A stretch of 64,000 bases of DNA, taken from IMG/VR virus record IMGVR_UViG_3300048850_000049, positions 55,864 through 119,863 of that record. The stretch is one strand, 5' to 3'. Below are positions 1,343 through 60,385 of this stretch, in pieces. Source of the stretch: a virus (lineage: Duplodnaviria > Heunggongvirae > Uroviricota > Caudoviricetes). Below the pieces are notes generated by a model. The model was not told the DNA's origin and did not search any database. It worked only from the letters and a program-made list of their open reading frames with translations. Each line of letters starts with the position of its first letter. The first letter of the stretch is position 1. Position numbers and translations under genes: made by a program.

Positions 1343-1394
1343 AGTAAGGAAGCACTTACTTCCTGCCGCGTTCCAATGACGATCTCGCTATAAC
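1343..1394 (+). promoter_or_regulatory. Phage promoter class (palindrome GTAAGGAAGCACTTACTTCC, -35-like CTGCCGCGTTCCAATG, -10-like CGCTATAAC)
   Basis: Motif instance upstream of gene 1404. Confidence 0.5.
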
Positions 1395-1403
1395 TGAAAT
1401 CAG

Positions 1404-1988
1404 ATGAACGACAGACACGACCGGATGCGAGTGAAAGCCCGGAAGTATCTCGCGAAGAGGAAATCAATGTCTTATCCGATTAAAACGCGGTCGATCTCGC
1501 TCGACCATAGGGGCGGCACCAAGTCCTATCACCTCATGATTATTGAGGCTGCGAACGGGAATGCCGTCTTTATCAGTCGCTGGGGCAAGACCGGTCAGTT
1601 CGGCGAAATGAAGGTCGAAGAATACGACAGTCCTGCCAAGGCAATGAAGGCTTGGGAAAAGAAGGAGCGCGAAAAGACGCGAAACGGATACGGTCAGGCA
1701 GGTCCGGCGCGAGAAGGCCGCGCGGACACGTCTGACGAGTTCCCGAAGGCCGTCTCGCTGTCCATCTTCAACAAGATGGGTGCAAGTGCCGTCAAGCACC
1801 TCGACCCCGGCTTCGACACCGCAGGAATGCGTGAGGCTGATCCCGCCCAGTATGACGAGGAGACCGGCAGGAAGATCGATACGGCGCGCAAGGCTGACAT
1901 TAGCGAAGCGCTCGCGGCCGAAAAGGCTGCTTCTGAGAAAGCCGCTGCCGAGGCTTACGCCGACAATCCGATTTTTGGGAGGTTCTGA
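1404..1988 (+). CDS. WGR-domain protein; C-terminal PIFGRF tail
   Basis: RWGKTGQFGEMKVEEYDSPAKAMKAWEKKEREKTRNGY matches the WGR-domain pattern; ends ..NPIFGRF. Confidence 0.5.
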   Translation: MNDRHDRMRVKARKYLAKRKSMSYPIKTRSISLDHRGGTKSYHLMIIEAANGNAVFISRWGKTGQFGEMKVEEYDSPAKAMKAWEKKEREKTRNGYGQAGPAREGRADTSDEFPKAVSLSIFNKMGASAVKHLDPGFDTAGMREADPAQYDEETGRKIDTARKADISEALAAEKAASEKAAAEAYADNPIFGRF

Positions 1989-2536
1989 TGTCTGGACCCG
2001 TTTTGACGTTAATGAGCGCGAACAAGGCTTCGTTCACTTGCCCGATTTTCAATGTGGAAACCCGGGTTTCCCACTGCCTGCAGTTGCGCGACAAGGTTTG
2101 GGCAGGCTTCAAGCCTCCGATCCGCAAGGGCTGCCAGGCGTGCATGACGGCCGGCAAGTGCCCGATGGCGAAGATGGTCGACAAGATAATCTACGGCAAG
2201 CAGGGCAAGGATGCGCCCGAGCCTTACGCGTCGGCGGAGCCCAAGCAGGTCAAGCTGCGCGACGATCTCCTCGAACGTGTCCTGCCGGTCCTGGTCCGCC
2301 ACGAAACGATGTCCCGCTACGATGTGAGCGACAAGGAACGTGAACTGATCGAGTCCGCGAACGATCGCATCCGCAAGCAGATGCAGAATGCTCCGCTGGC
2401 TTCCAGCGACACGGTTTCAACGCCTTACCGCAGGTCTGCGCCGAAGAAGGTCGCACCGAAGCCGAGCAACACCAACAACCGCATCAACGAAGCTGCAGCT
2501 TCCGGCGATCTCGCCGCAGCCGTGAACGCAGCGTAA
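1988..2536 (+). CDS. Hypothetical Cys-rich protein; C-terminal SGDLAAAVNAA motif
   Basis: ATG overlaps the upstream TGA; N-terminal Cys cluster (CPIF..HC..C..C..C); the tail motif is shared with two other ORFs. Confidence 0.4.
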   Translation: MSGPVLTLMSANKASFTCPIFNVETRVSHCLQLRDKVWAGFKPPIRKGCQACMTAGKCPMAKMVDKIIYGKQGKDAPEPYASAEPKQVKLRDDLLERVLPVLVRHETMSRYDVSDKERELIESANDRIRKQMQNAPLASSDTVSTPYRRSAPKKVAPKPSNTNNRINEAAASGDLAAAVNAA

Positions 2537-2546
2537 GGAGAACCCG

Positions 2547-4873: not shown

Positions 4874-5974
4874 TCAATGAGCCCTCCTTCGCCGCATGTA
4901 TCTCACGACTTCGGCGAGGTCGATCTGCCCGCGTTCGATCATCCGGACGTAATTTCGGTAGTATCCGCCTGGATTCTTGATCTTCATCGGCCCCGCCTGG
5001 TCCGCGGAATAGATTTCAAGCACCACAAAGAAGGCCGCGGCCGCTCGCATCGGCCCAATTTTCTCGACAGCCTCATCCCAGGCACTCCGGTGTATCCCAA
5101 TCGCGCCTCGCAAACCGGCCGCGGCCGATAGAAGTTCTCTATCGTTGGTGATCGTGTCGGTGTAACTCATTGCATCAGGGCAGGCAGCGCACAAATCTGG
5201 CAAGTTGATTTCGGATTCATTATCTCTTTGCCGTTTGTCACAAGACTGGTCAGGAGAATCTTTGTTGTTCTCAATGAGACGGCAGTTTTTGCCGCCACAG
5301 GCGGCATTATATTGATCCTCAAGGGTAGTTTTCAGACTTTGCCATAGAGAAAGCACAGGCTCGACCGGCTGCGATGACGTTCTACGCGGGGAGAGGGCGC
5401 TCAATCGCTCAAATTCGATCGTGAGCGCGTTCATATCGATGTTCTGACCGAGTGCGTCAAGCGCGCCCAGAAGCTCCTGAGAAGCTCTCCTGCAGATCGT
5501 AATCTGATCGAACAGAGCCATCCGCGCTCGCTGCAACTCCCGGATCGCATCGGTGCGCGCCTGCAGCTCATCTTTACGCGCCAGGAGGGGGGAGAGATCG
5601 AAGCCATAGGCATCAAGAATCTGTCCCTGCTTTGAGCGCACAGCGAAACGTTTGCCATTGGCGCTGTCTCGTGCAAGCACGCATCCTGCTCGGATCAGTT
5701 CACCCACGGCATACCTGATCGCGCGGTCGGAGAGTCCCGTTCGGTCGGAAAGGAACTCGTTTGACGGCCAGACCAGGTAAAGCCCGTTGACCGGCTCGCG
5801 AAAGAACCCGACCAGCTGCGAAAGGATCGATCTTGCGGAAGGGCGCAGGCCAAGAGCAATGGCTGCCAAGTGCGCGCTTTCAAATAGATCCTTCTTGGTG
5901 CCGGCATCCTCCGGCACGTAGGTATCCGCTGCCGGCGCAACGCGGCGCCAGCCTGAATGTCCCTCAGTTCTCAC
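4874..5974 (-). CDS. RepC-like winged-helix replication initiator / DNA-binding protein
   Basis: WPSNEFLSDRTGLSDRAIRYAVGELIRAGCVLARDSANGKRF and AYGFDLSPL resemble RepC (repABC family) N-terminal HTH motifs as I recall them. Confidence 0.5.
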   Translation of the reverse strand: MRTEGHSGWRRVAPAADTYVPEDAGTKKDLFESAHLAAIALGLRPSARSILSQLVGFFREPVNGLYLVWPSNEFLSDRTGLSDRAIRYAVGELIRAGCVLARDSANGKRFAVRSKQGQILDAYGFDLSPLLARKDELQARTDAIRELQRARMALFDQITICRRASQELLGALDALGQNIDMNALTIEFERLSALSPRRTSSQPVEPVLSLWQSLKTTLEDQYNAACGGKNCRLIENNKDSPDQSCDKRQRDNESEINLPDLCAACPDAMSYTDTITNDRELLSAAAGLRGAIGIHRSAWDEAVEKIGPMRAAAAFFVVLEIYSADQAGPMKIKNPGGYYRNYVRMIERGQIDLAEVVRYMRRRRAH

Positions 5975-7712: not shown

Positions 7713-8300
7713 TCATGGAACCACGATCGACTTTTCCAAGCTTTCCAGTATTGCCTTGTGCCCGTTTATTTGCTTGTTCAAACGAACGATGGTGGTCTCT
7801 TTAATGCTGATGCGAAGAAACTCCACACCGATACAAAAGACGGCCTTGTTGTATTTTACGAAGCCCTTAGACCTAATCTCGTATTCGGGGATTGGCATCT
7901 TTGGACGCTGGAACCGCTCGATTTTTTCGCCGTTATAATTTTCGTGCGCCTTGCGACAGCAGTGCATCGACATAATCAGATCTTTGATGTCCGCTTTTAA
8001 GAAGTCCGCATGTTCCATATCATGAGCAAAGCGGTTTCTTAGCTTTCTGAGGATCCCGATATCCCTAAACTCATCGTCATTTATCAGCCCGAAGGCGCGA
8101 CAAATGCTGGACTTGCCTGAGAAGGTCGACAAAGGTCCATTTGAATCAAAAAGGTCAGTTGTCGCCTTTTGCGACATACCGTTCACCTGGCATTCATAGA
8201 GTAGCATCTGGCGGAGCTCAGCGTCGATTATAGAGGCCGCTAGAATGACGCAGCCACGATCTGACTCTTCCATAAGGTCGTATTTTAGCTCTTCGAACAT
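7713..8300 (-). CDS. HEPN-like (Rx4-6H) protein, Abi/DUF4145-like
   Basis: RKLRNRFAHD motif in a helical 195-aa protein; minority strand; AT-rich island. Confidence 0.5.
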   Translation of the reverse strand: MFEELKYDLMEESDRGCVILAASIIDAELRQMLLYECQVNGMSQKATTDLFDSNGPLSTFSGKSSICRAFGLINDDEFRDIGILRKLRNRFAHDMEHADFLKADIKDLIMSMHCCRKAHENYNGEKIERFQRPKMPIPEYEIRSKGFVKYNKAVFCIGVEFLRISIKETTIVRLNKQINGHKAILESLEKSIVVP

Positions 8301-8402: not shown

Positions 8403-8479
8403 AAGTAAGTATGCATTGACTTACTTTTTTTTCAGTGGTCTAACGCTTCCGCTGCGATCCCGTGAGTGTCTCGCTATAA
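8403..8479 (+). promoter_or_regulatory. AAGTAAGT..ACTTACTT palindrome plus T8 (terminator-like), then -35-like GCGATCCCGTG and CGCTATAA
   Basis: Upstream of the XRE regulator gene 8532. Confidence 0.5.
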
Positions 8480-8531
8480 TTCAACTATCGAAAGCGAGAT
8501 GCAATTGATTGATAAAAACCGAACCGTATAA

Positions 8532-8963
8532 ATGGGGATTAAGAACATGACAGCGAAGACAGGAAACCAAACACGGTTTTCCACCTTCATAGAAAAGAAG
8601 CTGATGGAGAGCACAAAGACCCAAAAGGAAATTGCGCAAGCCGTCGGCTACAAGAACCAGAATATGATCACCATGCTTAAGCTTGGTGACGTAAAGCTCG
8701 CTCTCGATCGCGTGCCGGCAATGGCAAAAGCCCTTGATATGGATCCTTTGGATCTTTTCAAAATTGCCCTTACCCAATTCTATGACAACGAGTCCGTCTC
8801 CCTCCTCGTAGGGATCATTGAACGAGGCATTTCTCCGGCCGAGCGTAAGATCCTCGAAACCGTTCGGGAAGCCTCAGGAAGTGATACGCCGGAACTTACC
8901 CCAGAACGAGCCAAAAAGCTCGCGAAGGTCTTCGCCCCTGAAAAGGTGAAGGAGCCTGGATAG
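8532..8963 (+). CDS. XRE-family HTH transcriptional regulator
   Basis: QKEIAQAVGYKNQNMITMLKLGDVKL HTH; preceded by the phage promoter motif and followed by an intrinsic terminator. Confidence 0.6.
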   Translation: MGIKNMTAKTGNQTRFSTFIEKKLMESTKTQKEIAQAVGYKNQNMITMLKLGDVKLALDRVPAMAKALDMDPLDLFKIALTQFYDNESVSLLVGIIERGISPAERKILETVREASGSDTPELTPERAKKLAKVFAPEKVKEPG

Positions 8964-8993
8964 TTCACTCACGACCCACCGCGGTTCAACTGG

Positions 8994-9027
8994 AAGCCTG
9001 CTATAAGCCCAAGCAGGCTTTTCTTTT
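8994..9027 (+). terminator. Intrinsic terminator (GAAGCCTGC..GCAGGCTT plus TTCTTTTG)
   Basis: After the XRE gene stop. Confidence 0.55.
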
Positions 9028-9094
9028 GCGCCGTGACTTAAGTAATTACTGACTTATGCCTGACCACCCCTCCTCGTTCCCCAAGGATTCTACA

Positions 9095-9322: not shown

Positions 9323-9366
9323 GCGCAGAAGTAAGTAATCAAATACTTACAAGGAGTTAGCGAAGC

Positions 9367-11674: not shown

Positions 11675-11709
11675 GCATCCCACATCAGTTTTAAGTAAGC
11701 AATTACTTA
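11674..11709 (+). promoter_or_regulatory. Promoter variant (TTGCATCCCACATC .. TTTTAAG) plus palindrome TAAGTAAGCAATTACTTA
   Basis: Upstream of cobS 11750. Confidence 0.45.
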
Positions 11710-11749: not shown

Positions 11750-13054
11750 ATGAACCAGGTAGTTGAAACTGGTGCAGTCACCGCTGCACCGGACGGGAAG
11801 ATTTTGTGCCATATCGATAACGTTCGCGTTCACTCGATCCAGTCGCACATCCAGAAAAACCATAAGGGCTGGACGATCGAAAAGTATCAGGCCGATTTTC
11901 CTGGTGAACCGATTCTGTCGGACACTGCAAAAACGCTGCTCGCCAAGCGTGAGCAGGAAATGAGCGCCGCGGCTAGTGCTGCGCCGGCCGCTGCATCAGT
12001 TCAGGCGCAGATGGTCGCCGACGCGACCGGCATGTCCGCTCCCCAGGTCATCGTCAATCAAGCGTTCTTCCACGATCTATTCGAACTTGGCGCTGCACCT
12101 TCTGCGCTCTCGACCAAGGGTCAGCCCATCCCGGTCAAGACGCTCTCCGGGCATGACAGCCTCTCGGCCGATTACCTGCCCGAGATCGACAAGGCGTATG
12201 TGTTCAACATTGATCTTCTCAAGAAGGTCATTATCGGCTTGGAACTGAATATTCCCTCCTATCTATGGGGCTATCACGGCACCGGCAAGACGACGCTCCT
12301 GCAGCAGGCTGCAGCGCGCACCCGCCGTCCGTTCATGCGCGTCCAGCATACGATCAATATGCAGGAGTCGGACGTTCTTGGTCAGTGGACCGTGCGTTCG
12401 CGGCCCGTTGAGGTGGAGCAAATCGACCAGACCGGTGTCAAGCACATGGTTGTTCAGCAGCAGTCCGTCACCGAGTTCCAGCTTGGACCGTTGCCGCTCG
12501 CGATGATCAACGGCTGGGTCTACTGCGCCGATGAATACGATTTCGCGATGCCGTCTGTAACTGCGGTCTATCAGCCGGTTCTCGAAGGCCAGGCGCTGAT
12601 CATCAAGGATGCTCCTGCACACTTCCGCAAGATCGTCCCGCATCCGAACTTCCGCTTCGTTGCAACCGGCAACACCAACGGCATCGGTGACGAAACCGGT
12701 CTCTATCAAGGCACGCTTGTGCAGAACGCAGCCAACTATTCCCGCTTCGGCATCACTGTCGAGGTCGAATACATGGAAGCGAAGATCGAACAGGCGATCC
12801 TCACCTCCAAGACCGGCATCGACGCGGCGAACGCCTCGAAGATCGTCAAGATGGCGAATGAGGTGCGCAAGATGTTCCGCGATGGCAAGATCACCATGAC
12901 GATCTCGCCGCGTGAGCTGCTCCGCTGCGCTTCGCTCGGGATCGCTTACGGCGGTAACTGGACGCTCGGTATGGAGCTCGCTTTCGCAAACCGTCTGTCG
13001 CGCGTCGATAAGAAGGTTGTCCAGGAATACATGCAGCGGGTGTTCGGATCTTGA
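11750..13054 (+). CDS. cobS: CobS-like AAA+ ATPase (AAA_5/MoxR type)
   Basis: Walker A GYHGTGKTTLL; follows the vWA partner directly; RBS AGAGGGAA. Confidence 0.6.
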   Translation: MNQVVETGAVTAAPDGKILCHIDNVRVHSIQSHIQKNHKGWTIEKYQADFPGEPILSDTAKTLLAKREQEMSAAASAAPAAASVQAQMVADATGMSAPQVIVNQAFFHDLFELGAAPSALSTKGQPIPVKTLSGHDSLSADYLPEIDKAYVFNIDLLKKVIIGLELNIPSYLWGYHGTGKTTLLQQAAARTRRPFMRVQHTINMQESDVLGQWTVRSRPVEVEQIDQTGVKHMVVQQQSVTEFQLGPLPLAMINGWVYCADEYDFAMPSVTAVYQPVLEGQALIIKDAPAHFRKIVPHPNFRFVATGNTNGIGDETGLYQGTLVQNAANYSRFGITVEVEYMEAKIEQAILTSKTGIDAANASKIVKMANEVRKMFRDGKITMTISPRELLRCASLGIAYGGNWTLGMELAFANRLSRVDKKVVQEYMQRVFGS

Positions 13055-13056
13055 GT

Positions 13057-13710
13057 ATGACGCAGTATCGCGATCCGAAGGAAAGCCGCGCCCAGATTAA
13101 GGCTTTCGCTCACAAGGTTCTCCGCCGGGTGCATTCACTCGGCGCGAGGACGCAGACACTGGACGATGTTGAGGGCGAATTGTGGGTAGCATGGTGCCTC
13201 GCCTGTGAACGCTTCAATCCGGAAGCAGGCTGCGCCTTCTCGACCTATCTCTACACGGGTATGCGCCGGCACATTAATCGCTGGATCGAAAAGAATTTCG
13301 AGCGCTTCCACGATGAGACGGTCGCCGCGTCCCTAGACGCTTCCTATGGGTCAGAGATGTCTGAGGATGGTTCGGGCTCGACGCTCGGCGAGGCAGTCGC
13401 TGACACGCATATGCGTCAAGACCAGGAATACGAGCAGAAGGATTGCTTCGCTTACGCCCTCACCCGGTTGTCTGACCGCGCCAAGATGTTCCTGACCTTC
13501 CTTAAGGATCATCCGCCCGAGCTGATGGCGCAGATGAAGGATCTCGAAGCGAAAGCGAAGCACGCGAAGGAACTTGGCGTCACCTATGCCATGCCCAACC
13601 GTCTCACCAGCTTCATGATCTTCGATTTCATGGGCGCTACTCGCGTCGAACGGAAGCAAATTATGGACGAGGTTGCCCAGGTGGGGCAGCTGATTTCGAA
13701 CCAGGGTTAA
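13057..13710 (+). CDS. Sigma-70 family protein (region 2-like)
   Basis: ERFNPEAGCAFSTYLYTGMRRHINRWIEK resembles sigma region 2.1-2.4 (FNPE.G..FSTY....IR..I); start overlaps the cobS stop. Confidence 0.55.
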   Translation: MTQYRDPKESRAQIKAFAHKVLRRVHSLGARTQTLDDVEGELWVAWCLACERFNPEAGCAFSTYLYTGMRRHINRWIEKNFERFHDETVAASLDASYGSEMSEDGSGSTLGEAVADTHMRQDQEYEQKDCFAYALTRLSDRAKMFLTFLKDHPPELMAQMKDLEAKAKHAKELGVTYAMPNRLTSFMIFDFMGATRVERKQIMDEVAQVGQLISNQG

Positions 13711-17620: not shown

Positions 17621-18243
17621 TGCCCCGGCCGGAACACTTTGTCCGGCTGGTGTCAGTGGAGCCGGAGAAGAAGACCCTGCTACAGAAGCTTGGAGATTTC
17701 GTCAGCGGGATCTTCAAGCCTGATACCGAGGCCGAAGATCGCCGCAACGCTGAATGGGCAAAGCTCCTAACGGCTAAGCAACCTGTGCCGCGGGCTCCTA
17801 TGCGAAGTCCGATGCTTATTCGGCCGCAGCAGGCGAAAATCTCAGGCAGTCCCACCAAGATTGGTTACGACGCCCCTCAACACCTGCCTGTCTGCGCAAG
17901 CGGAAACATCATTCTCTACGAGGACTTGGTTTTCGGAAGGTATTCAATGGAAGAATGGAACGACATGGAAGAGGAAGAACGCGAAGAGGTTCTCGAAGAG
18001 TGGAACGCCAACGTTGAAATGAGCGAACACGACAAGATTTCCAACCTCGCTACTTTCGGTATTCAGCCGCCCGTGCCTATCGATCCGCAAGAAGCTGCGG
18101 TTCGTCGTATGCACGAGAGGGCGGTTGCCAACAATCTCGCCCGCGACATGGAAGCCCACAAGAAGAAGCTGGAACTTGAGCTGGCAGAAGCCGAGGAGCG
18201 GGAGAAGCATTACACCGGCAACGCAATTTTCGGCGCGTTCTAA
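17617..18243 (+). CDS. Hypothetical protein with C-terminal AIFGAF tail
   Basis: ATG overlaps the dnaE stop (ATGA); ends ..GNAIFGAF. Confidence 0.45.
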   Translation: MMPRPEHFVRLVSVEPEKKTLLQKLGDFVSGIFKPDTEAEDRRNAEWAKLLTAKQPVPRAPMRSPMLIRPQQAKISGSPTKIGYDAPQHLPVCASGNIILYEDLVFGRYSMEEWNDMEEEEREEVLEEWNANVEMSEHDKISNLATFGIQPPVPIDPQEAAVRRMHERAVANNLARDMEAHKKKLELELAEAEEREKHYTGNAIFGAF

Positions 18244-18244
18244 A

Positions 18245-18275
18245 TGCGCGTCCCGAGCGCAGTCTCGCTATAATT
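18245..18275 (+). promoter_or_regulatory. Promoter (TGCGCGTCCCGAG .. TCGCTATAA), no palindrome
   Basis: Upstream of gene 18300. Confidence 0.45.
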
Positions 18276-18299: not shown

Positions 18300-18866
18300 A
18301 TGACGACTCCGACGACGGCCGACGCCGCAAAGGAAGTTACGACCTATCCGGTCAGGGACTTTCTCGACGCTCATCAATTGAAGAAGGATCTCGCCTTCTC
18401 TCCCAACAACCTGACGGATGCCATGATTCAGCAGGCGTCGATGTTCTCGCATTATGGCGTGCTTGCGGCCGACGCATCCCGTCAGGTCGACGTGGTGAAG
18501 ATGCTGCTTGAGAATACCGAGGCAGCAGTTTCCCAGATCATCCGCGATGAAGTGGCAAAGGCCGGCGAAAAGGTGACTGAGGCCGGAATCGCAACCAAGA
18601 TCGCCCGTCATCAGCGCGTCGTATCGATGAAGAAGGCTTTGAACGAAGCCAAGCGCATCGAAGCCATCGGCAAGACCGCAGTTGAGTCCTTCCGGCACCG
18701 GCGTGACATGCTGGTGCAGCTCGGGCTCATCAGCCGTGAAGAAATGAAGGGTGAGCTTCGGATCGGCGAAAAGTCGGCCCGTGAACAGGCGGCCGAGACG
18801 TCCAAGGAGCTTGCTCTTTCGCGCCTTGCCCGGAAGAACACCGTAAGCGAAAATTCTGACAATTAA
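18300..18866 (+). CDS. Hypothetical protein
   Basis: Preceded by the GCTATAA promoter motif and an RBS. Confidence 0.45.
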   Translation: MTTPTTADAAKEVTTYPVRDFLDAHQLKKDLAFSPNNLTDAMIQQASMFSHYGVLAADASRQVDVVKMLLENTEAAVSQIIRDEVAKAGEKVTEAGIATKIARHQRVVSMKKALNEAKRIEAIGKTAVESFRHRRDMLVQLGLISREEMKGELRIGEKSAREQAAETSKELALSRLARKNTVSENSDN

Positions 18867-18867
18867 G

Positions 18868-18915
18868 TGCAATCCCTTTCATTTTGCGCTATAAAGTAAG
18901 TAAGCACTTACTTAG
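18868..18915 (+). promoter_or_regulatory. Promoter (GTGCAATCCC .. TTTGCGCTATAA) plus palindrome AGTAAGTAAGCACTTACTTAG
   Basis: Upstream of gene 18943. Confidence 0.55.
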
Positions 18916-19206: not shown

Positions 19207-19222
19207 TGGACTGATAAACTTA

Positions 19223-19279
19223 TGCGATCCCATGCCGAGGTCGCTATAAGTGAATTAGCTAAATAGCTATCTAGCTATG
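19223..19279 (+). promoter_or_regulatory. Promoter (TGCGATCCCATG .. CGCTATAA) plus a second operator type TTAGCTAAATAGCTATCTAGCTA
   Basis: Upstream of the SSB gene; the same TAGCTA-repeat operator recurs at 54861. Confidence 0.55.
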
Positions 19280-21446: not shown

Positions 21447-21465
21447 ATTCAACGAAGGAGAAAGT

Positions 21466-22572
21466 ATGAGTAGTCCCGCAGATATTATGAAGGCGCTGAC
21501 CGGCGTCATCGGCGACAACGACGAAGAGGCAACCGTCAAGCATTATCTCGACACCGGCTTCCCGCCGCTCAACAACGCCTCGGCTTCCGATTGGAACGGT
21601 GGATTGCCTGTTGGGCGCGTGATCGAGATCGCCGGTCCTCCGTCATCCGGCAAGACCGCAATCGCAACCAAGGCAATGGCTGCGGCACAGGCTGCAGGCG
21701 GTGTTGCTGGCTTTATGGACCATGAGCGGTCGTTCTCGATGGGTTTGGCACCGAAGCTCGGTCTCGATATCACGCCTGGCCGCCTGATCTACAAGAAGCC
21801 GCAGACGTTCGAGGATTCAGTTGCGATCTTCCACCTGGCCGTCAAGACGATCCGCGATAAGAAGCTGATCGCCAAGGATGCACCGATCTGTTGGGTATTC
21901 GACAGCCTTGCCGCAATGGTCCCTCAGTCTGTTTTGACGGACTCGAAGGGCAAGGAGCGCGATGCGACTGACCGCAACATGAACGACAACACGGCACTTG
22001 CCCGTGCAACGTCGGCGCATTTCCCGGCGATCGCCATGATTGCAGAGCAGTATGACGTTCTGGTCATCTTCCTCAATCAGATCCGCACCAAGATCGGCGT
22101 TGTGTTCGGTGATCCGCGCAAGACGACGGGTGGCGACAGCCCTGCTTTCTACTTCTCGCAGCGTCTCTGGCTTTCGGCCGCACAGATCCAGGACTCGGTG
22201 ACGAAGGAAGTCATCGGCATGAAGGTTACGGGTTCGTTCGTCAAGAACAAGGTCGCCCGTCCCTTTGCAAAGGCATCCTGGCGCTTCATGTTCATGCCCG
22301 ACGGAACTGGACGCTTTGACGCCGAAGGCAGCCTGGTAGACTTCCTTGTCGATCAGAAGCTGCTTCCGACCGTCAAGCCGGACGGCAAGGATTGCCGCAA
22401 GGGCTATGTGATGTGGGATGGTAAGGAAGTCTCGCGTAACGCGCTCGGCAAGGTCATCGAGGCGGAAGGTGCTGCTGGCTATAACAAGCTGAAGGCATTG
22501 CTGCCGGCCAAGTATGAGGCGCCGGTCGTCTCTGAGGTCGAAATGGACGAGCTTGCAGCCGAAGCAGCCTAA
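21466..22572 (+). CDS. recA: RecA recombinase
   Basis: GRVIEIAGPPSSGKT Walker A; VIFLNQIRTKIGVVFGDPRKTTGG matches the RecA L2/ATPase core. Confidence 0.85.
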   Translation: MSSPADIMKALTGVIGDNDEEATVKHYLDTGFPPLNNASASDWNGGLPVGRVIEIAGPPSSGKTAIATKAMAAAQAAGGVAGFMDHERSFSMGLAPKLGLDITPGRLIYKKPQTFEDSVAIFHLAVKTIRDKKLIAKDAPICWVFDSLAAMVPQSVLTDSKGKERDATDRNMNDNTALARATSAHFPAIAMIAEQYDVLVIFLNQIRTKIGVVFGDPRKTTGGDSPAFYFSQRLWLSAAQIQDSVTKEVIGMKVTGSFVKNKVARPFAKASWRFMFMPDGTGRFDAEGSLVDFLVDQKLLPTVKPDGKDCRKGYVMWDGKEVSRNALGKVIEAEGAAGYNKLKALLPAKYEAPVVSEVEMDELAAEAA

Positions 22573-22600
22573 TCCCTGCATTCCCTCGCCCGACTTGCTA
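22566..22600 (+). promoter_or_regulatory. Promoter (CTGCATTCCCTCG .. TGCTATAA)
   Basis: Upstream of gene 22636. Confidence 0.45.
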
Positions 22601-22635
22601 TAAGTGAAAAATCGAAACAGCAGGTCGGGCGTGAA

Positions 22636-23503: not shown

Positions 23504-23520
23504 GTTCCGCGCACAACCTG

Positions 23521-23575
23521 ACGCATCCCAACTCGTCATTTGCTATAACAAGATTAATCAGTAATTACTTACTTA
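23521..23575 (+). promoter_or_regulatory. Promoter (ACGCATCCCAAC .. TGCTATAA) plus palindrome CAGTAATTACTTACTTA
   Basis: Upstream of gene 23588. Confidence 0.5.
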
Positions 23576-28439: not shown

Positions 28440-28452
28440 GCGCAACAATCAG

Positions 28453-28499
28453 CGCAGTCCCGATAGATTTGCGCTATAAAGTAAGTAAGCACTTATTTA
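28453..28499 (+). promoter_or_regulatory. Promoter (CGCAGTCCCGAT .. TTTGCGCTATAA) plus palindrome AGTAAGTAAGCACTTATTTAC
   Basis: Upstream of gene 28513. Confidence 0.55.
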
Positions 28500-29598: not shown

Positions 29599-29654
29599 CT
29601 AGTAAGTAATCACTTACTTATCTATCCTGTGAACCCAACCATCGTGTTGGGTTC
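29599..29654 (+). promoter_or_regulatory. Operator-type palindrome AGTAAGTAATCACTTACTTA followed by a 9-bp-stem leader hairpin GAACCCAAC-CATCGT-GTTGGGTTC
   Basis: Upstream of the nrdB-nrdA-grx operon; no T-run after the hairpin. Confidence 0.4.
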
Positions 29655-32568: not shown

Positions 32569-32597
32569 AGGGGCGCTTCGGCGCCTCTCTCTTTTTG
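32569..32597 (+). terminator. Intrinsic terminator (AGGGGCGC-TTCG-GCGCCTCT plus CTCTTTTTG)
   Basis: After the glutaredoxin stop. Confidence 0.55.
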
Positions 32598-32645
32598 TGC
32601 AGTCCCGAGAACATTTCGCTATAAGTTAAGTAAGCACTTACTGAC
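32598..32645 (+). promoter_or_regulatory. Promoter (TGCAGTCCCGAG .. CGCTATAA) plus palindrome GTTAAGTAAGCACTTACTGAC
   Basis: Upstream of gene 32655; overlaps the upstream terminator. Confidence 0.55.
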
Positions 32646-35871: not shown

Positions 35872-35890
35872 CTTCCCGCGAACAACCTAA

Positions 35891-35945
35891 TGCGCTCCAA
35901 CGAGCGCATCGCTATAACTCTGAATGTAAGTAAGCACATACTGAC
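35891..35945 (+). promoter_or_regulatory. Promoter (TGCGCTCCAAC .. GCTATAAC) plus an imperfect palindrome
   Basis: Upstream of gene 36056. Confidence 0.45.
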
Positions 35946-37213: not shown

Positions 37214-37227
37214 CAACCACACATCCC

Positions 37228-37285
37228 CTGCCGCATTCCACTTCGACATTTGCTACTTTGAGTAATCAGTAAGCACTTACTTAAC
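37228..37285 (+). promoter_or_regulatory. Promoter variant (CTGCCGCATTCCAC .. TGCTACTTT) plus palindrome AGTAATCAGTAAGCACTTACTTAAC
   Basis: Upstream of the lipoprotein gene 37301. Confidence 0.45.
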
Positions 37286-37543: not shown

Positions 37544-37587
37544 GTCAACTGGCGCGCTCTTCGGGGCGCGCCACCCTCACTCATTAC

Positions 37588-37645
37588 CTACCGCATCCCA
37601 ACAATTGCTGCGCTATAACGATGTCAGTAAGTAGTTACTTAAGAG
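37588..37645 (+). promoter_or_regulatory. Promoter (CTACCGCATCCCAAC .. CGCTATAAC) plus palindrome CAGTAAGTAGTTACTTAAG
   Basis: Upstream of the GHKL ATPase gene. Confidence 0.55.
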
Positions 37646-41490: not shown

Positions 41491-41521
41491 TAACTCCCGA
41501 CAATATAGCGCGCAAAATCGA

Positions 41522-41568
41522 AGCACTCCCTCGACTTGCGCGCTATAAAGTAAGTAAGCACTTAATTA
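41522..41568 (+). promoter_or_regulatory. Promoter (GCACTCCCTCGAC .. GCGCTATAA) plus palindrome AGTAAGTAAGCACTTAATTAT
   Basis: Upstream of the RNA ligase gene. Confidence 0.55.
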
Positions 41569-42196: not shown

Positions 42197-42880
42197 ATGA
42201 CGATCACTCACCGTCACAGCGGCATCAACACCCCGACGACGGCTCCCGTCGCCACTGGTCGCGGACCTTACATGCACTCCTCCAACGGCCGGAAGATTTA
42301 TCCGTTCGATCCGCGCCCGGAGGAATTGAACATCAACGTGATCGCGCACCACCTGGCCTGCAATAATCGCTGGAACGGCGCAACGCAGCACAAGCGGTTC
42401 AAGTCGCGCATCTCCTTCTCCGTTGCAGAGCATTCGGTCCTGGTCGCAAGGTATATGGTCGAACACCTGAAGCGTCCTGACCTGGAGCTGGAAGCGTTAA
42501 TGCACGACGCACCGGAATATCTCCTTTCTGACATGATCCGGCCGATCAAGCACGATCCGCGCGTCTATCCGGTTTACAAGCCGCTTGAAGACAGGGCCGA
42601 GAAGGTGATCGCTGAGCGGTTTGGCCTGATCTATCCGCTTCCGCCCGAGGTCAAGATGGCTGACGAGGCTGTCTGCGCGGCCGAGGCCATTCAGATCGTT
42701 CCCAAGGATGAGCGCGACGAATGGATCTCCGGCAAGATGCACGATGATAGCCGGGTTGCTCCTTACGAAATCCAGATGCTCGGCGCCTACGCCGCGAAGG
42801 AATTGTTCCTGGTCGCCTATGAAGAAGCCATTCGTCGCCGGCCTGACTTCCACATGCTTCCGTCTTCTGTTGAGCTATAA
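42197..42880 (+). CDS. HD-domain phosphohydrolase (YfbR-like 5'-deoxynucleotidase family)
   Basis: H..SVAEHS ... LMHDAPE HD motifs. Confidence 0.6.
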   Translation: MTITHRHSGINTPTTAPVATGRGPYMHSSNGRKIYPFDPRPEELNINVIAHHLACNNRWNGATQHKRFKSRISFSVAEHSVLVARYMVEHLKRPDLELEALMHDAPEYLLSDMIRPIKHDPRVYPVYKPLEDRAEKVIAERFGLIYPLPPEVKMADEAVCAAEAIQIVPKDERDEWISGKMHDDSRVAPYEIQMLGAYAAKELFLVAYEEAIRRRPDFHMLPSSVEL

Positions 42881-42900
42881 CATAAGTAAGAAAATACTTA
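42853..42900 (+). promoter_or_regulatory. Promoter (CATGCTTCCGTC .. AGCTATAAC) plus palindrome TAAGTAAGAAAATACTTA
   Basis: Overlaps the 3' end of the HD-domain gene; upstream of 42914. Confidence 0.5.
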
Positions 42901-44840: not shown

Positions 44841-44845
44841 CTCTC

Positions 44846-44880
44846 CTGCCGCATCCCAAAGCTGTCTGCGATACAACTAA
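44846..44880 (+). promoter_or_regulatory. Promoter variant (CTGCCGCATCCCAA .. GCGATACAAC)
   Basis: Upstream of gene 44922. Confidence 0.4.
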
Positions 44881-45686: not shown

Positions 45687-45743
45687 TAGGCCGCTACGCA
45701 AAGCGGGCGGTGAATCCCACCAGGTTCATCGCCCGCTCACTAC

Positions 45744-45795
45744 CTACCGCACTCCAAATTCAATCGCGCTATAAACTAAGTAAGAAATTACTTAG
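45744..45795 (+). promoter_or_regulatory. Promoter (CTACCGCACTCCAA .. CGCGCTATAAAC) plus palindrome CTAAGTAAGAAATTACTTAG
   Basis: Ends 1 nt before ATG 45797. Confidence 0.55.
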
Positions 45796-47535: not shown

Positions 47536-47536
47536 C

Positions 47537-47570
47537 CTACCGCGCTCCAACAGCATTCACGCTATAACTT
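47537..47570 (+). promoter_or_regulatory. Promoter (CTACCGCGCTCCAAC .. CGCTATAAC), no palindrome
   Basis: Upstream of the 663-aa gene. Confidence 0.5.
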
Positions 47571-50115: not shown

Positions 50116-50150
50116 GGAAGCGTTCATCACCTGATGCGCTTCCGTTTTCA
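50116..50150 (+). terminator. Intrinsic terminator (GGAAGCG..CGCTTCC plus GTTTTCATTTG) that overlaps the next promoter
   Basis: After gene 49650..50072. Confidence 0.45.
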
Positions 50151-50185
50151 TTTGCGCTATAAGATCAGTAAGAACTTACTTACTC
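50133..50185 (+). promoter_or_regulatory. Promoter (GATGCGCTTCCG .. TTTGCGCTATAAG) plus palindrome CAGTAAGAACTTACTTACTC
   Basis: Upstream of gene 50200 and the nadM-nadV genes. Confidence 0.55.
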
Positions 50186-52892: not shown

Positions 52893-52908
52893 GCCGCTCA
52901 CTCCCTTC

Positions 52909-52950
52909 AGCACTCCGTCACGATCAACGCTATAAGTAATTCATTACTTA
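52909..52950 (+). promoter_or_regulatory. Promoter (AGCACTCCGTCAC .. CGCTATAAG) plus palindrome AGTAATTCATTACTTA
   Basis: Upstream of the small-TM/SPFH module. Confidence 0.5.
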
Positions 52951-54061: not shown

Positions 54062-54085
54062 TCCGCGGCTCCCGCTGCGAATTGA

Positions 54086-54113
54086 GAGGCGCCCTTGTGG
54101 CGCCTTTTTCTTT
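54086..54113 (+). terminator. Strong intrinsic terminator (GAGGCGCC-CTTGT-GGCGCCTC plus TTTTTCTTTG)
   Basis: After the SPFH gene. Confidence 0.65.
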
Positions 54114-54146
54114 GTCCGAGAGTCCCGTCCAAACCCGGCAATTGTC

Positions 54147-54180
54147 CTGCCGCACTCCAATTCTTAATTCGATAAAATGA
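54147..54180 (+). promoter_or_regulatory. Promoter variant (CTGCCGCACTCCAA .. CGATAAAA)
   Basis: Upstream of gene 54212. Confidence 0.45.
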
Positions 54181-54211
54181 TCTTGTCAGCAACATCGGCG
54201 GAGATCGAAAA

Positions 54212-55920: not shown

Positions 55921-56053
55921 AGCGTATTTTCCTTTTACACCCCTCCCCTTAAACCTTTGGTTTAAAGCGGAACTCGCGCGGCAGGTATTAGCTCAAATTG
56001 ATGTATTGGCAATAGGCATGTTTGCGGCATCAGTCGCAAGAAAGTCAGATTCT

Positions 56054-56090
56054 GTGCGTTTCCTACACTGGCACGCTATAAGTAATATAT
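56054..56090 (+). promoter_or_regulatory. Promoter (TGCGTTTCCTAC .. CGCTATAAG)
   Basis: Upstream of gene 56133. Confidence 0.45.
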
Positions 56091-56475: not shown

Positions 56476-56727
56476 ATGAATGTTATCAACCGACAGCGGC
56501 TCGAGTTTGCAGCCGCTGGGTTTCTCAATGAGATGCGCAAGCAATGGGTGCAGATGCACCCCGAGGATCCCTGCCCCATTAAGTCTCTTGCTGAATATCC
56601 GCCGGCGCAACGTTCTGCTCTGATGGCCGGTATTCAAAAGTCGATCCAGTTCGCCGGCACTGACACCGATGTCGCCTTTGCGGCCTGGGTAGAGCGAAGG
56701 GAAGAAGAGAAGGCGCGCACGACCTGA
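56476..56727 (+). CDS. Hypothetical protein
   Basis: ORF on the coding strand. Confidence 0.4.
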   Translation: MNVINRQRLEFAAAGFLNEMRKQWVQMHPEDPCPIKSLAEYPPAQRSALMAGIQKSIQFAGTDTDVAFAAWVERREEEKARTT

Positions 56728-56774
56728 CGCAATCCCATTTTCTTTTGCGCTATAACATAAGTAATCGCTTACTT
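56726..56774 (+). promoter_or_regulatory. Promoter (ACGCAATCCCAT .. TTTGCGCTATAAC) plus palindrome TAAGTAATCGCTTACTTA
   Basis: Upstream of gene 56793. Confidence 0.55.
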
Positions 56775-56792
56775 ACTGCAGGAGACTCCCCC

Positions 56793-58452: not shown

Positions 58453-58513
58453 CTCACTTCCAAGCGCAAGCCGAATTCTTTTGCGCTATAAGTTAAGTAA
58501 TTGCTTACTTATA
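58453..58513 (+). promoter_or_regulatory. Promoter (CTCACTTCCAAGCGC .. TTTGCGCTATAAG) plus palindrome GTTAAGTAATTGCTTACTTATA
   Basis: Upstream of gene 58561. Confidence 0.55.
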
Positions 58514-58560: not shown

Positions 58561-58812
58561 ATGAGCGTTCAAAAACGAAAGCGCGACCTTCTGAAAATGG
58601 CGCGCGCTATCTGTCCGAAGGCCACGGTGGATCACACGAGCGGGTCACACCTGGTCGTCACCATCTTTGGGCCGGAAGGCAGTCGCAAGATATTTTGCGC
58701 CGCTACAGCGTCCGATCATCGCGATTCCAAGAACGTGAAGCGCGACCTGATGGGCGCGGCCCGTGCAGTAGGCATTGTTGCTAACCGTAATGATCCTCCC
58801 GCTTCCCAATAG
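58561..58812 (+). CDS. Hypothetical protein
   Basis: Promoter plus palindrome at 58453-58513. Confidence 0.4.
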   Translation: MSVQKRKRDLLKMARAICPKATVDHTSGSHLVVTIFGPEGSRKIFCAATASDHRDSKNVKRDLMGAARAVGIVANRNDPPASQ

Positions 58813-58855
58813 CGTTCTTGCTACTTTTTACATCTGCAATTCAGGAGATTTGAGC

Positions 58856-59410
58856 ATGGCCCAGTATTCCGTTCACGGCAGCAGCATGATCCAAAAAGCG
58901 TTTGCGTTCGCTTATGGCGCGCACGGCGCGATTGACCAGCGCCGTAAATACACCAATGAGCCATATATTGTGCATCCCAAGGCCGTCGCTGAATTGGTGC
59001 AGTCGGTTGCGACACACATCTGGCAACAGGTTGTTGTGGCTTGGCTCCACGATACCGTCGAAGACACGGCGATCACGCTGCGCGACATCGAGGAGATGTT
59101 CGGTGGCGATATTGCTATGGGTGTTATGCACCTGACCAATGTCGGGCATGAGATGGGCAATCGCGCCAAGCGGTTCGAATTGAACCTCACCCGGCTGATG
59201 AATGCGCCAGATTGGGTGAAGACCGTCAAGGTTGCGGATCTGATCGACAATACCAGGACCATCGTCGAAAACGATCCGCAGTTCGCCGTTCTCTATCTGC
59301 GCGAGAAGGCCGTCACCCTTGAAGCGATTAAGGGCGCGGACGCTGATCTGTGGCAGAGGGCATGGCAGCAGCTTGAGAAGGAGCGCGCATCGCTCAAGGT
59401 GCCGGCATGA
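58856..59410 (+). CDS. Small alarmone hydrolase (SpoT/RelA-type HD domain, Mesh1-like)
   Basis: NEPYIVHPKAVAELV ... WLHDTVEDTAIT ... FGGDIAMGVMHLTN match the (p)ppGpp hydrolase HD motifs; RBS AGGAGA. Confidence 0.7.
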   Translation: MAQYSVHGSSMIQKAFAFAYGAHGAIDQRRKYTNEPYIVHPKAVAELVQSVATHIWQQVVVAWLHDTVEDTAITLRDIEEMFGGDIAMGVMHLTNVGHEMGNRAKRFELNLTRLMNAPDWVKTVKVADLIDNTRTIVENDPQFAVLYLREKAVTLEAIKGADADLWQRAWQQLEKERASLKVPA

Positions 59411-59790
59411 AGCTGACACAAGCTGAAATGAATACGCTACGCCAATGCTGGCTTATGACCGAAGGCAAGGCATGGGAGCCCCGACGCGGAACAAATTCCA
59501 AGGGCATAAAACGATTGGTCGAAGCCGGATATATTCGTGTCGTTGACGGTCGTTGCGGATTTGAACTTCTCAAAGACGCAATGGTTGATTGGACCGAAGC
59601 GGGGCGCGCAGCGCTCGCCGCGTCGTCAGTTAAGCCGCTGGAGTTGTTCGATCCCAAGGACGAAGAAGCGATAAAGTGGATCACCGAGAACCTGTCCGGG
59701 TTGCGGCGCGATGACGGATCGATCGAATATACCCTCGTGGCCGTTGTCCGAGCCTTCCAGGCGGGCAAGCATGAGGCAGCGGACTCATGA
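59407..59790 (+). CDS. Hypothetical protein
   Basis: ATGA coupling. Confidence 0.4.
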   Translation: MKLTQAEMNTLRQCWLMTEGKAWEPRRGTNSKGIKRLVEAGYIRVVDGRCGFELLKDAMVDWTEAGRAALAASSVKPLELFDPKDEEAIKWITENLSGLRRDDGSIEYTLVAVVRAFQAGKHEAADS

Positions 59791-60323
59791 GAGGCGATAT
59801 CATTGTCCACGATATCTATACCTTGCCGGACGCAGTAACCACGCTGCAGGTGATCTCCATCGAGGATTCTTCTCTCAGCACGCCGCAGTTTTATGTCCGA
59901 TTGAAAGAGGGCGATGAATGTGCGGATGAACCGTTTGAGGACTATCCGCAAGCCTGTGCGCATTGGCGTAACTGCCTGCGTCAGATGGGTATTGTTGTTC
60001 CGTATCAGGCGCCGGTCGCCGAGATCAATCTTAAAGGCGAGATTGATGCCCAAGAGAAGACCGCGACTGAGGTCTACTACCACTACCATTCGCTTCTAGC
60101 GGCCCAGAGACAGCCCAATGACGAGGCGACCAGGATCCGTGACTGCATGATCCAGGATCCCGACTTTGTTCGCTTCGCGCAGGATATCCTGCTTATTGTG
60201 CCAGAGAAGGCCCATGACTGGATTAGTGCCTCAATGCGCGTGTGCTGCAAGAGGGTTGCCGCTCTCCAGCGGATGACAGAATTCAAGGCGCTCGAGGTCA
60301 TACCGGGTTTCGGCTCCTTCTGA
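59787..60323 (+). CDS. Hypothetical protein
   Basis: ATGA coupling. Confidence 0.4.
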   Translation: MRGDIIVHDIYTLPDAVTTLQVISIEDSSLSTPQFYVRLKEGDECADEPFEDYPQACAHWRNCLRQMGIVVPYQAPVAEINLKGEIDAQEKTATEVYYHYHSLLAAQRQPNDEATRIRDCMIQDPDFVRFAQDILLIVPEKAHDWISASMRVCCKRVAALQRMTEFKALEVIPGFGSF

Positions 60324-60350
60324 TGGGAACACGCTTCGAGCGATCATCAC

Positions 60351-60385
60351 CTACCGCACTCCAACGCTGTAATTGCTAAAACTGT
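60351..60385 (+). promoter_or_regulatory. Promoter variant (CTACCGCACTCCAAC .. TGCTAAAAC)
   Basis: Upstream of gene 60416. Confidence 0.45.

Follow-up and report, generated by a model that had tools for sequence, protein, structure and literature searches.

A lineage-specific bipartite promoter class in the replication arm of a Rhizobiaceae phage-plasmid, with an operator-like palindrome

The repeated bipartite sequences dispersed over a 64,000-nucleotide stretch of a caudoviricete genome (IMG/VR record IMGVR_UViG_3300048850_000049, positions 55,864 to 119,863; hereafter the window) are a real, lineage-specific promoter class of the early/middle arm of a phage-plasmid. Each copy joins an upstream element to a -10-like GCTATAA, and our curated list holds 26 of them, all directly upstream of gene starts on the + strand. 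Megablast places the window as the replication and nucleotide-metabolism arm of a siphophage-plasmid of Rhizobiaceae of ~120 kb. In the searchable literature on its relatives, which consists mainly of genome records and one announcement, we found no paper on their promoters or regulation, and the class is not described there for this lineage. The motif supplies a map of the transcription units of the 64 kb arm and cleanly divides the genome into two arms with different promoter types.

Abundance, anatomy and conservation of the repeats

A preliminary description of the window had proposed at least 25 dispersed copies, all on the + strand and all pointing at + strand gene starts, and the counts bear this out. 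The sequence GCTATAAC by itself occurs nine times on the + strand and once on the - strand of the window (0.37 expected), and an iterated weight matrix anchored on GCTATAA finds 23 sites on the + strand and none on the other. A two-block weight matrix that tolerates a shift of 1-2 nt returns 22 sites against 0, compared with 0.3 in dinucleotide shuffles with both strands summed. The regular expression GCRN[TCG]CC-N12-G[CA]TA[TAC]AA matches 19 times on the + strand, never on the - strand and 0.05 times in shuffles; it is simpler than the matrix, yet not independent of the sites, because it was written once these had been seen. Beyond the output of the matrix scans, the curated list takes in three sites that these had missed: 18267 (core pattern), 42874, and 58820 (first matrix scan). 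Three other candidates were discarded: site 4361 of the first matrix, a false positive with a poor -10 (GGCAAATA) inside a - strand open reading frame (ORF) region, and the copies of GCTATAAC at 22478 and 63206, which lie within coding sequence and have no upstream box.

Genes were called by a codon-usage score; greedy calling of the longest ORFs was abandoned because in DNA of 56% G+C it produces shadow ORFs on the - strand. The + strand holds almost all genes of the window. Of the 26 motif copies, 23 lie outside called genes, and the remaining three are 6-45 nt from the end of a gene or from an ORF start that was called too far upstream. At 23 sites the G of GCTATAA is followed, at a distance of 36-95 nt, by a start codon that has a Shine-Dalgarno-like sequence. 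Scans with an E. coli-type promoter gave chance-level counts, without enrichment or strand bias, and no match at + strand gene starts. The rhizobial host consensus gave 25 matches on the + strand and 26 on the - strand, a chance-level and strand-symmetric result, with none at + strand gene starts, the single exception overlapping motif site 56075. This leaves the motif as the sole promoter candidate in the arm. Rfam has no family for the repeats. The absolute strand bias, the position of the sites against gene starts, the conservation of both boxes and the lack of alternative promoters in these scans support the view that the repeats serve as promoters and that they define the transcription units of the region, as had been proposed.

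The information in the matrix is confined to two blocks which, with the G of GCTATAA as 0, read G(-19), C(-18), R(-17), n, T(-15), C(-14), C(-13) and G(0)-C-T-A-T-A-A; among 22 sites, positions 0 to +6 are G22, C20, T21, A22, T16, A19 and A20. Numbering from the transcription start assumes a start 7 nt after the -10. On this scale an extended -10, yGCTATAAc, would occupy -15 to -7 and the upstream core GCRnTCC about -33 to -27, with G-33, C-32, T-29, C-28 and C-27 invariant; 17 nt separate the hexamer nnGCRn (CCGCAY or kTGCRn) from TATAAn. About half of the sites (class A) have the longer CCTRCCGCAYTCCAAC, and the others (class B) have kTGCRnTCCC. Weaker conservation, CGCkCAyyaCCT, extends to about -51, i.e. 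~37 nt 5' of the G of GCTATAA, and this shoulder is partly the 3' arm of the G+C-rich hairpins ahead of many sites. The upstream box has neither a dyad nor a direct repeat.

Some particulars of the preliminary description need correction at this level. The upstream element is present at all five of the example positions it gave (37588, 45744, 47537, 54147 and 60351), and its judgement that the -35 part is unusual agrees with an upstream block unlike the host CTTGAC. The full consensus CCTRCCGCAYYCCAAC, by contrast, is found in about half of the sites, the rest keeping the core GCRnTCC only, and the spacing is not 7-9 nt: CCAAC stands a constant 9 nt from GCTATAAC, with 10 nt in two sites (50156 and 56749). 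That many copies sit on the T-run of a preceding terminator applies to three or four sites (8473, 9000, 32618 and 54171), while about eight others follow G+C-rich hairpins that lack a T-run.

Within class A a subclass can be recognised by GCTAAAAC or GATAAAAT, by the absence of the palindrome discussed below and by a conserved (CA)TCAGCAAC(G) that comes ~12-20 nt 3' of the -10. Its copies are found in the window at 54186-54193 and 60385-60400 and in relatives introduced in the next paragraph (X66 116301, 116740 and 119007; V1 740, 11128, 11565 and 13524; pLM21S1 57378, 58488 and 59063). This subclass heads small ORFs near the start of the V1 record and may be the earliest temporal class.

By DNA the nearest relatives are RHph_X66 (X66), V1VFA-S (V1) and B1VFA, with ~77% megablast identity to the window, and more remote kin are ~117 kb plasmids of Sinorhizobium sp. 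LM21 (pLM21S1), Shinella and Pararhizobium. The same matrix finds 20 sites on the + strand and none on the - strand in X66, 19 and 0 in V1, and 21 and 0 in pLM21S1, all three being complete. These sites span the DnaB and primase genes, the replication and nucleotide genes and extend into the small-ORF block; in the arm of X66, V1 and pLM21S1 that carries partition, packaging, head, tail and lysis genes (ParA/ParB, terminase), there are no motif sites. In an ungapped alignment of 18 orthologous groups anchored on the -10, the window and its relatives share an identity of 0.9-1.0 over the -10 block and wherever the upstream core is invariant. Identity is 0.29-0.63 in the spacer and ~0.2-0.6 in the flanks, taken as everything beyond ~40 nt on the 5' side or beyond 27 nt on the 3' side of the G of GCTATAA. 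Three metagenomic relatives, in which the phage sigma factor treated below is 45-51% identical, retain GCATTCC-N12-GCTATAA, CCAAC-N9-GCTATAAC and the palindrome alike.

A search of 596 Gb of bacterial genomes gives 16 matches to the strict class-A pattern, close to the number expected by chance, so that the pattern is not a common host promoter type. One of the matches is from Rhizobium and looks like another member of the phage-plasmid lineage. In RHEph10, a phage of a sister clade with the same host genus, the motif has few copies and an altered -10, GCTATTY, after GCRnCCC.

The operator-like palindrome and the reading of the promoter

A third element, which goes unmentioned in the preliminary description, is an operator-like palindrome over the predicted start. 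The 18-bp sequence TAAGTAA-N4-TTACTTA lies downstream of the -10 at 15 of the 26 sites, and ten of these 15 copies begin exactly 9 nt after the G of GCTATAA, in one register centred near +4 of the assumed numbering. With a start ~7 nt after the -10 the palindrome would reach from about -5 to +13, leaving the greater part of its left arm untranscribed. The arms are constant and the central 4 nt variable, and deviations in the arms are confined to one of them, kept across genomes and not compensatory. As RNA the palindrome folds weakly (-1 to -3.8 kcal/mol); together with the position of the left arm, mostly upstream of the predicted start, and the lack of compensatory changes, this led us to disfavour a 5' RNA hairpin. 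Constant half-sites at a fixed spacing, a variable centre and a fixed position over the promoter are the properties of a repressor operator, and the same register over the predicted start in ten sites makes the palindrome look like an operator for a dimeric helix-turn-helix (HTH) protein.

The relatives carry ~40 copies per genome, in both arms. In their structural arm the palindromes fill the 17-nt spacer of sigma-70-like TTGCAA...TACAAT promoters, as in TTGCAA-GTAAGTAAGTCCTTACT-TACAAT upstream of the portal gene, and there they would not be transcribed. Copies apart from the listed sites occur in the window as well. The palindrome TAAGTAAGCAATTACTTA (11692..11709), preceded by TGCATCCCA, has no GCTATAA and lies upstream of the CobS gene (ATG 11750), after which the sigma gene comes; it is conserved in X66 (62953), V1 (78518) and pLM21S1 (5075). 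Two copies are stand-alone: TAAGTAATCACTTACTTA (29603..29620) lies upstream of the ribonucleotide reductase (RNR) beta gene (29684), and the imperfect TAAGTAATCAAATACTTA (9332..9349) immediately precedes the CobT gene (9367).

An XRE-family HTH protein encoded on the + strand at 8532..8963 (Pfam HTH_3) is the candidate for binding the palindrome. RepC, the sigma factor and this protein are the recognisable DNA-binding regulators of the window, and there are no others. In RHEph10 the recognition helix of the XRE orthologue differs in its first residues, and the 18-bp palindrome differs too (TCAATCAATATTGATTGA) and occupies the same kinds of places. Examples in that genome are at 112700-112745, 13500-13566 and 65271-65300, and one copy is embedded in the TTGACG-N17-TACCAT promoter that precedes the portal gene.

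The phage sigma gene (13051..13710, + strand) encodes a candidate phage reader of the motif. That its product belongs to the sigma-70 family, as the preliminary description had supposed, is confirmed by a Pfam Sigma70_r2 match (E = 2.5e-9), by an NCBIfam match below the cut-off to the sigma70-ECF superfamily (ECF, extracytoplasmic function), and by an AlphaFold model (pLDDT 78) in which a confidently predicted sigma2 domain is joined through a disordered linker to a helical, sigma4-like C-terminal domain; the top Foldseek matches to the model are all full-length sigma factors. An identical protein is predicted on a JGI contig of 119,863 bp. Homologues are confined to the lineage's elements of ~115-122 kb in Rhizobium, Sinorhizobium/Ensifer and Agrobacterium, and all 38 homologue clusters with a stated source organism are from Rhizobiaceae. 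Region 2.3 reads FSTYLYTGMRRHINR (FSTYLY) and is ECF-like. Group-1 sigmas use a tryptophan pair plus Q/T residues on TATAAT; the phage sigma lacks equivalents of W433, W434, Q437 and T440 when residues are mapped by what is known of E. coli sigma-70, and from its sequence it looks unsuited to TATAAT. The gene lies in a block of XRE, CobT, CobS, sigma and dnaE genes downstream of motif sites 8473 and 9000; these two sites and palindrome 11692 precede it, and we found no host-type or other promoter upstream of it in the window. The RHEph10 sigma is 35% identical to that of the window, and a domain-by-domain comparison of the two reveals no co-variation with which box changed.

The sigma gene is adjoined by a 182-aa ORF (13712-14260) with no Pfam or NCBIfam family match, whose position is conserved in X66, V1, pLM21S1, RHEph10 and the metagenomic relatives and whose product could be a sigma partner or antagonist. 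Outside the window, 19-bp inverted repeats, TTCCCGTCCATTCACTGTC ... GACAGTGAAAGGACGGGAA, stand on either side of the terminase-operon promoter of the relatives, which combines the palindrome with TATAAT (X66 18676-18780 and 49093-49140, V1 ~21420-21470); the right-hand element is found again upstream of phoH. These repeats may serve late control and could be recognised by the phage sigma.

We favour, with about even confidence, a reading in which the host holoenzyme recognises the promoters through the -10, alone or with a helper, the private box being the signal of the class and the palindrome an operator. The bacterial multi-subunit RNA polymerase would use these promoters of the replication, recombination, nucleotide-metabolism and small-ORF arm, its SigA holoenzyme presumably opening them through the consensus extended -10, and the upstream element would be a phage-idiosyncratic -35-region signal that marks the class and may dock a phage factor. 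Bound to the putative operator, a dimeric HTH protein, for which the XRE protein (8532-8963) is the candidate, could shut the whole arm, either while the element persists as a plasmid-prophage or when the late genes take over; the phage sigma, itself a product of one of these operons, would in that case have its role at a later stage and at other places. The -10 block agrees with the housekeeping-sigma consensus of alphaproteobacteria, namely with five of the six positions of CTATAT and exactly with GCTANAWC. The former is part of the S. meliloti sigma-70 consensus, CTTGAC-N17-CTATAT (PMC2873474). Retention of the motif where the phage sigma is only 45-51% identical speaks for the reading of the repeats as promoters. 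GCTANAWC is reportedly the -10 consensus of Caulobacter. The early promoters of T4 have a -35 of their own, GTTTAC, and are still read by the host sigma-70, and by analogy a phage may keep a private -35 under the host sigma.

Several points weigh against the favoured reading. The invariant upstream bases share one G only with the host -35 CTTGAC and, taken with the chance-level occurrence of the class-A pattern in bacterial genomes, would make reading by the unaided host polymerase unusual. The phage encodes a two-domain sigma for which no other target was identified. RHEph10, with the same host genus and a sigma 35% identical, has changed the -10, which is easier to understand if a phage protein reads that box. 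All numbering depends on the assumed start site, and palindromes in promoter-less junctions (9332; X66 15579 and 33057) would also fit a role at the RNA level.

It is possible, and we take the idea seriously without expecting it to hold, that the phage sigma replaces host SigA, its sigma4-like domain reading GCRnTCC and its sigma2 domain GCTATAA; the motif would then be a middle class requiring earlier synthesis of the sigma. Both domains are present, sigma and motif are alike found only in this phage-plasmid lineage, and both have diverged in RHEph10 within the same host genus. Sigma factors typically recognise two boxes in a non-palindromic arrangement at a fixed spacing, as here, a conserved upstream core unlike the host -35 exists to be read, and the sigma has no other identified target. 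The genes served (gp32-like single-stranded DNA-binding protein (SSB), RecA, RNR, rIIA/B, ligases, and an SbcCD-like nuclease pair of the Metallophos and SMC/AAA_23 families) are of the set under middle control in T4. The sigma's own gene, however, sits behind motif promoters 8473 and 9000 with no host-type promoter found upstream, and the small ORFs that open the V1 record, perhaps the end that enters the cell first, are the ones headed by the best motif copies. Moreover, the -10 equals the host housekeeping consensus whereas region 2.3 of the sigma is ECF-like, its divergence from the RHEph10 sigma follows no pattern that tracks the changed box, and the early promoters of T4 are, as noted above, a precedent for a private -35 under the host sigma-70. 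With its gene in a motif-headed operon and an ECF-like -10-reading region, attribution of the motif to the phage sigma is possible but unproven; of the recognition by a phage-encoded or phage-modified sigma that was first suggested, the existence of a phage sigma-family protein is what stands, and its reading of the motif is not established.

An improbable variant is sigma appropriation or class-II activation, in which host SigA reads the -10 and a phage activator binds the asymmetric upstream element (-51 to -25), substituting for the -35 contact in the manner of MotA/AsiA at T4 middle promoters or of Lpa at P1 late promoters. It would account for a host-type -10 combined with a conserved non-host box near -30 that reaches -51, longer than the footprint of sigma4, and many window ORFs without a family, such as 13712-14260 beside the sigma gene, could supply the protein. 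Yet Pfam scans of 78 window ORFs together, and of ORFs taken singly, recover no MotA, AsiA or other activator family, the box has neither dyad nor direct repeat, and the bootstrapping problem for the earliest genes applies here too. We consider it very improbable that the repeats are not primarily promoters but cassettes acting in RNA or recombination (processing or stabilising hairpins, or PeSL-like shuffling points) with an incidental likeness to a -10. Several sites do come after G+C-rich hairpins or terminators, palindromes are present also in promoter-less junctions, and the PeSLs of T4-like phages are composite terminator/promoter repeats flanking small ORFs (PMC4122927). Against this stand two conserved blocks at a fixed spacing around a variable spacer, upstream of the hairpin rather than inside it, as well as weak hairpins and the absence of an Rfam family. 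As PeSLs are promoters themselves, the cassette reading supplements the promoter reading and does not replace it.

A broader proposal, which we put forward with considerable reserve and think rather doubtful as a whole, is that the lineage runs its whole lytic programme on two private DNA codes, a phage-sigma promoter class and a palindromic operator of ~40 copies. Under the first code the ECF-like phage sigma would read a host-like TATAA -10 plus a new -35-region box, GCRnTCC; under the second, the operator would lie over the start in the replication arm and in the -35/-10 spacer in the structural arm, and one HTH dimer could silence the plasmid-prophage or time the early-to-late switch. The sister clade of RHEph10, in the same host genus, would then have different sequences for both codes.

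Two protein-DNA pairs can be proposed for test: the bipartite motif would be matched with either SigA or the phage sigma, and the palindrome with the XRE protein. RHEph10, with the same host genus, is the natural comparison for the evolution of phage-specific promoter codes. Should the phage sigma be the reader, a host-like -10 would be an unusual target for an ECF-like protein; should host SigA read the box without help, rhizobial -35 recognition would have a wider range than is now known.

Promoter sites and gene content of the arm

Sites are named below by the position of the G of GCTATAA, and all are on the + strand. Site 1387 (1362..1394; CCTGCCGCGTTCCAA-N10-GCTATAAC) precedes a WGR-domain gene (ATG 1467) and has orthologues in X66 (53489), V1 (69649) and pLM21S1 (114674). 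Site 8473 (8448..8480) combines a weak box with its -10 (TCCGCTGCGATCCCG-N10-GCTATAAT), follows an A+T-rich hairpin with T8 at 8403-8432 and leads into the XRE HTH gene (ATG 8532). Site 9000 (8975..9056; CCCACCGCGGTTCAA-N10-GCTATAAG; palindrome 9039-9056) heads the operon that runs from the ORF at 9056/9095 through CobT, CobS and sigma to dnaE. Its -10 lies within the loop of an intrinsic-terminator hairpin (AGCCTGC...GCAGGCT, about 8992-9022, plus a T-run, within 8992-9030) whose arms covary in X66, V1 and pLM21S1, and the terminator of the XRE gene and the promoter of the sigma operon therefore use the same bases.

Downstream of dnaE, site 18267 (18242..18274; AAATGCGCGTCCCGA-N10-GCTATAAT) is followed by an ATG at 18300, and site 18888 (18863..18914; TTAAGTGCAATCCCT-N10-GCTATAAA), with palindrome TAAGTAAGCACTTACTTA at 18897-18914, by an ATG at 18943. 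Site 19243 (19218..19275; ACTTATGCGATCCCA-N10-GCTATAAG) leads through TAGCTA repeats into the gp32-like SSB gene (ATG 19324). The ASCH-domain gene, named from its X66 orthologue (ATG 22636), follows site 22597 (22572..22632; ATCCCTGCATTCCCT-N10-GCTATAAG), where an inverted repeat, CGCCCGAC...GTCGGGCG (22584-22632), flanks the -10 on both sides; in X66 and V1 its arms are GTGCCCAGCT...AGCTGGGCAC, so that pairing is retained through a different sequence. Palindromes follow the -10 at site 23542 (23517..23575; CCTGACGCATCCCAA-N10-GCTATAAC; palindrome 23558-23575; GTG 23588), at site 28473 (28448..28499; ATCAGCGCAGTCCCG-N10-GCTATAAA; palindrome 28482-28499; ATG 28513) and at site 32618 (32593..32644; TTTTGTGCAGTCCCG-N10-GCTATAAG; palindrome 32627-32644; ATG 32655), the last of which sits on the T-run of the terminator at 32569-32588.

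An imperfect palindrome (35927-35944) accompanies site 35911 (35886..35944; CCTAATGCGCTCCAA-N10-GCTATAAC), which precedes a short ORF (ATG 35964) and the gene at 36056. Site 37252 (37227..37283; CCTGCCGCATTCCAC-N10-GCTACTTT; palindrome 37266-37283; ATG 37301) has a weak -10, and site 37612 (37587..37641; CCTACCGCATCCCAA-N10-GCTATAAC; palindrome 37624-37641) serves the rIIA-like gene (ATG 37652). The RNA ligase gene (GTG 41585) is preceded by site 41542 (41517..41568; ATCGAAGCACTCCCT-N10-GCTATAAA; palindrome 41551-41568). The box is weak at site 42874 (42849..42900; TCCACATGCTTCCGT-N10-GCTATAAC; palindrome 42883-42900; ATG 42914). Next come site 44870 (44845..44877; CCTGCCGCATCCCAA-N10-GATACAAC; ATG 44922), site 45768 (45743..45794; CCTACCGCACTCCAA-N10-GCTATAAA; palindrome 45777-45794; GTG 45812) and site 47561 (47536..47568; CCTACCGCGCTCCAA-N10-GCTATAAC; ATG 47648).

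In the remainder of the arm, the gap of 10 nt is found in site 50156 (50131..50182; (C)CTGATGCGCTTCCGT-N10-GCTATAAG; palindrome 50165-50182; ATG 50200) and in site 56749 (56724..56775; (C)CTGACGCAATCCCAT-N10-GCTATAAC; palindrome 56758-56775; ATG 56793). The palindrome of site 52929 (52904..52950; CCTTCAGCACTCCGT-N10-GCTATAAG; ATG 52970) overlaps the -10 at 52933-52950. Site 54171 (54146..54193; CCTGCCGCACTCCAA-N10-GATAAAAT; ATG 54212) is preceded by a terminator at 54084-54108 and has TCAGCAAC downstream. Site 56075 (56050..56082; TTCTGTGCGTTTCCT-N10-GCTATAAG; ATG 56133) is weak, and so is the -10 of site 58820 (58795..58827; CCTCCCGCTTCCCAA-N10-GCTACTTT; ATG 58856). Site 58485 (58460..58511; CCAAGCGCAAGCCGA-N10-GCTATAAG; palindrome 58494-58511) has its next gene start at 58528 or 58561, and site 60375 (60350..60382; CCTACCGCACTCCAA-N10-GCTAAAAC; ATG 60422) is the last in the window.

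Pfam families in the window include primase, ligase, CobT, CobS, the sigma-70 region-2 protein, a fusion of DnaE and uracil-DNA glycosylase, gp32-like SSB, 5'-3' exonuclease, RecA, dUTPase, RNA ligase, NAD-salvage enzymes, RepC and the one XRE HTH protein; the names of RNR and of rIIA/rIIB were taken from annotated orthologues in relatives. In the fusion, a DNA polymerase III alpha protein (14261-17620), the C-terminal uracil-DNA-glycosylase-superfamily domain covers residues 967-1098. A genome announcement on relatives reports parA, parB and repC, terminal repeats and a related plasmid, and these are the marks of a phage-plasmid lifestyle. The segment 4089-8300 is lower in G+C (~51%) and carries genes on the - strand: RepC (4874-5974), a 72-aa ORF in the place of a ribbon-helix-helix gene of the relatives, and an MtlR-like protein (7713-8300). 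It also holds a 368-aa ORF on the + strand that has no family, and its gene set is unlike that of X66 at the equivalent place. This segment is a plasmid-replication/control module. ARAGORN predicts a tRNA-Phe at 36574-36641 (+), between the gene at 36056 and the promoter at 37252, where the relatives have a tRNA-Cys, and a probably spurious tRNA-Trp at 34358-34435 (-) inside a + strand coding region.

Other repeats were noted in the lineage. The leader of the gp32-like SSB gene (19252-19275) contains three TAGCTA units (TAGCTAAATAGCTATCTAGCTAT) that are conserved in relatives (X66 ~20485-20515; V1 ~36050-36080; pLM21S1 ~12773-12800) and recur in other intergenic regions of X66; the equivalent leader of RHEph10 has TTAGCGA/TCGCTAA repeats in their place. 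The units may be a second dispersed protein-binding code or a site of SSB autoregulation as in T4 gene 32. In V1, a 1.2 kb non-coding stretch holds a cluster of GACCTTTACA-like repeats in both orientations (20437-20660), which look like iterons of an origin or packaging site.

Comparison with known systems

The closest likeness to a host system is with the SigA promoters of alphaproteobacteria, for which the housekeeping consensus of Caulobacter is TTGACgS-N10-14-GCtANAWC. The -10 block fits such a consensus, and the 17-nt spacer between nnGCRn and TATAAn is likewise shared. The -35 hexamer, however, has only a G in common, and the phage class has in addition an invariant TCC at -29 to -27 and conservation to about -51. 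The ECF-sigma promoters (GGAAC-N16-17-CGT/GTC) deserve comparison in view of the candidate phage sigma, which is ECF-like in region 2 and in size. Here, by contrast, CCAAC lies just 9 nt from the -10 block, and the -10 is TATAA-like rather than CGT/GTC-like; CCAAC as an ECF-type -35 was dropped, there being no conservation 16-17 nt downstream of AAC. Promoters of T7-like single-subunit RNA polymerases are one contiguous block of ~20 nt that adjoins the start site, unlike the two blocks with a non-conserved spacer found here, and Pfam scans of the window ORFs detect no phage RNA polymerase family.

Among phage systems, the T4 middle promoters share a host-type -10 with a phage box near -30 of the assumed numbering, dozens of dispersed copies, and the kinds of genes served (SSB, recombination, RNR, rII and ligases). 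The box of the phage-plasmid, CCTRCCGCAYTCCAAC or TGCRnTCCC, is nevertheless unrelated to TTTGCTTTA (MotA box (a/t)(a/t)(a/t)TGCTTtA), no MotA or AsiA homologue is detectable in the window, and the phage has a sigma-family gene of its own. The T4 early promoters, with their idiosyncratic GTTTAC, are alike in pairing a host-type -10 with a phage-specific box. PeSL cassettes of T4-like phages resemble the repeats as stem-loop/terminator and promoter units that head many small ORFs on one strand; they belong to another phage lineage, differ in sequence, and a PeSL-type terminator would be upstream, whereas the palindrome here lies downstream of the -10. The dispersed C1 operators of P1 offer a parallel for the palindrome: in a phage-plasmid, one short operator-like sequence recurs ~40 times per genome and overlaps many of the lytic promoters in either arm. 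Those of P1, however, are asymmetric 17-mers and the putative operators here 18-bp palindromes. By sequence and by proteins the class is a member of none of these systems; in its working it resembles the middle and early promoters of T4, the PeSLs and the operator network of P1.

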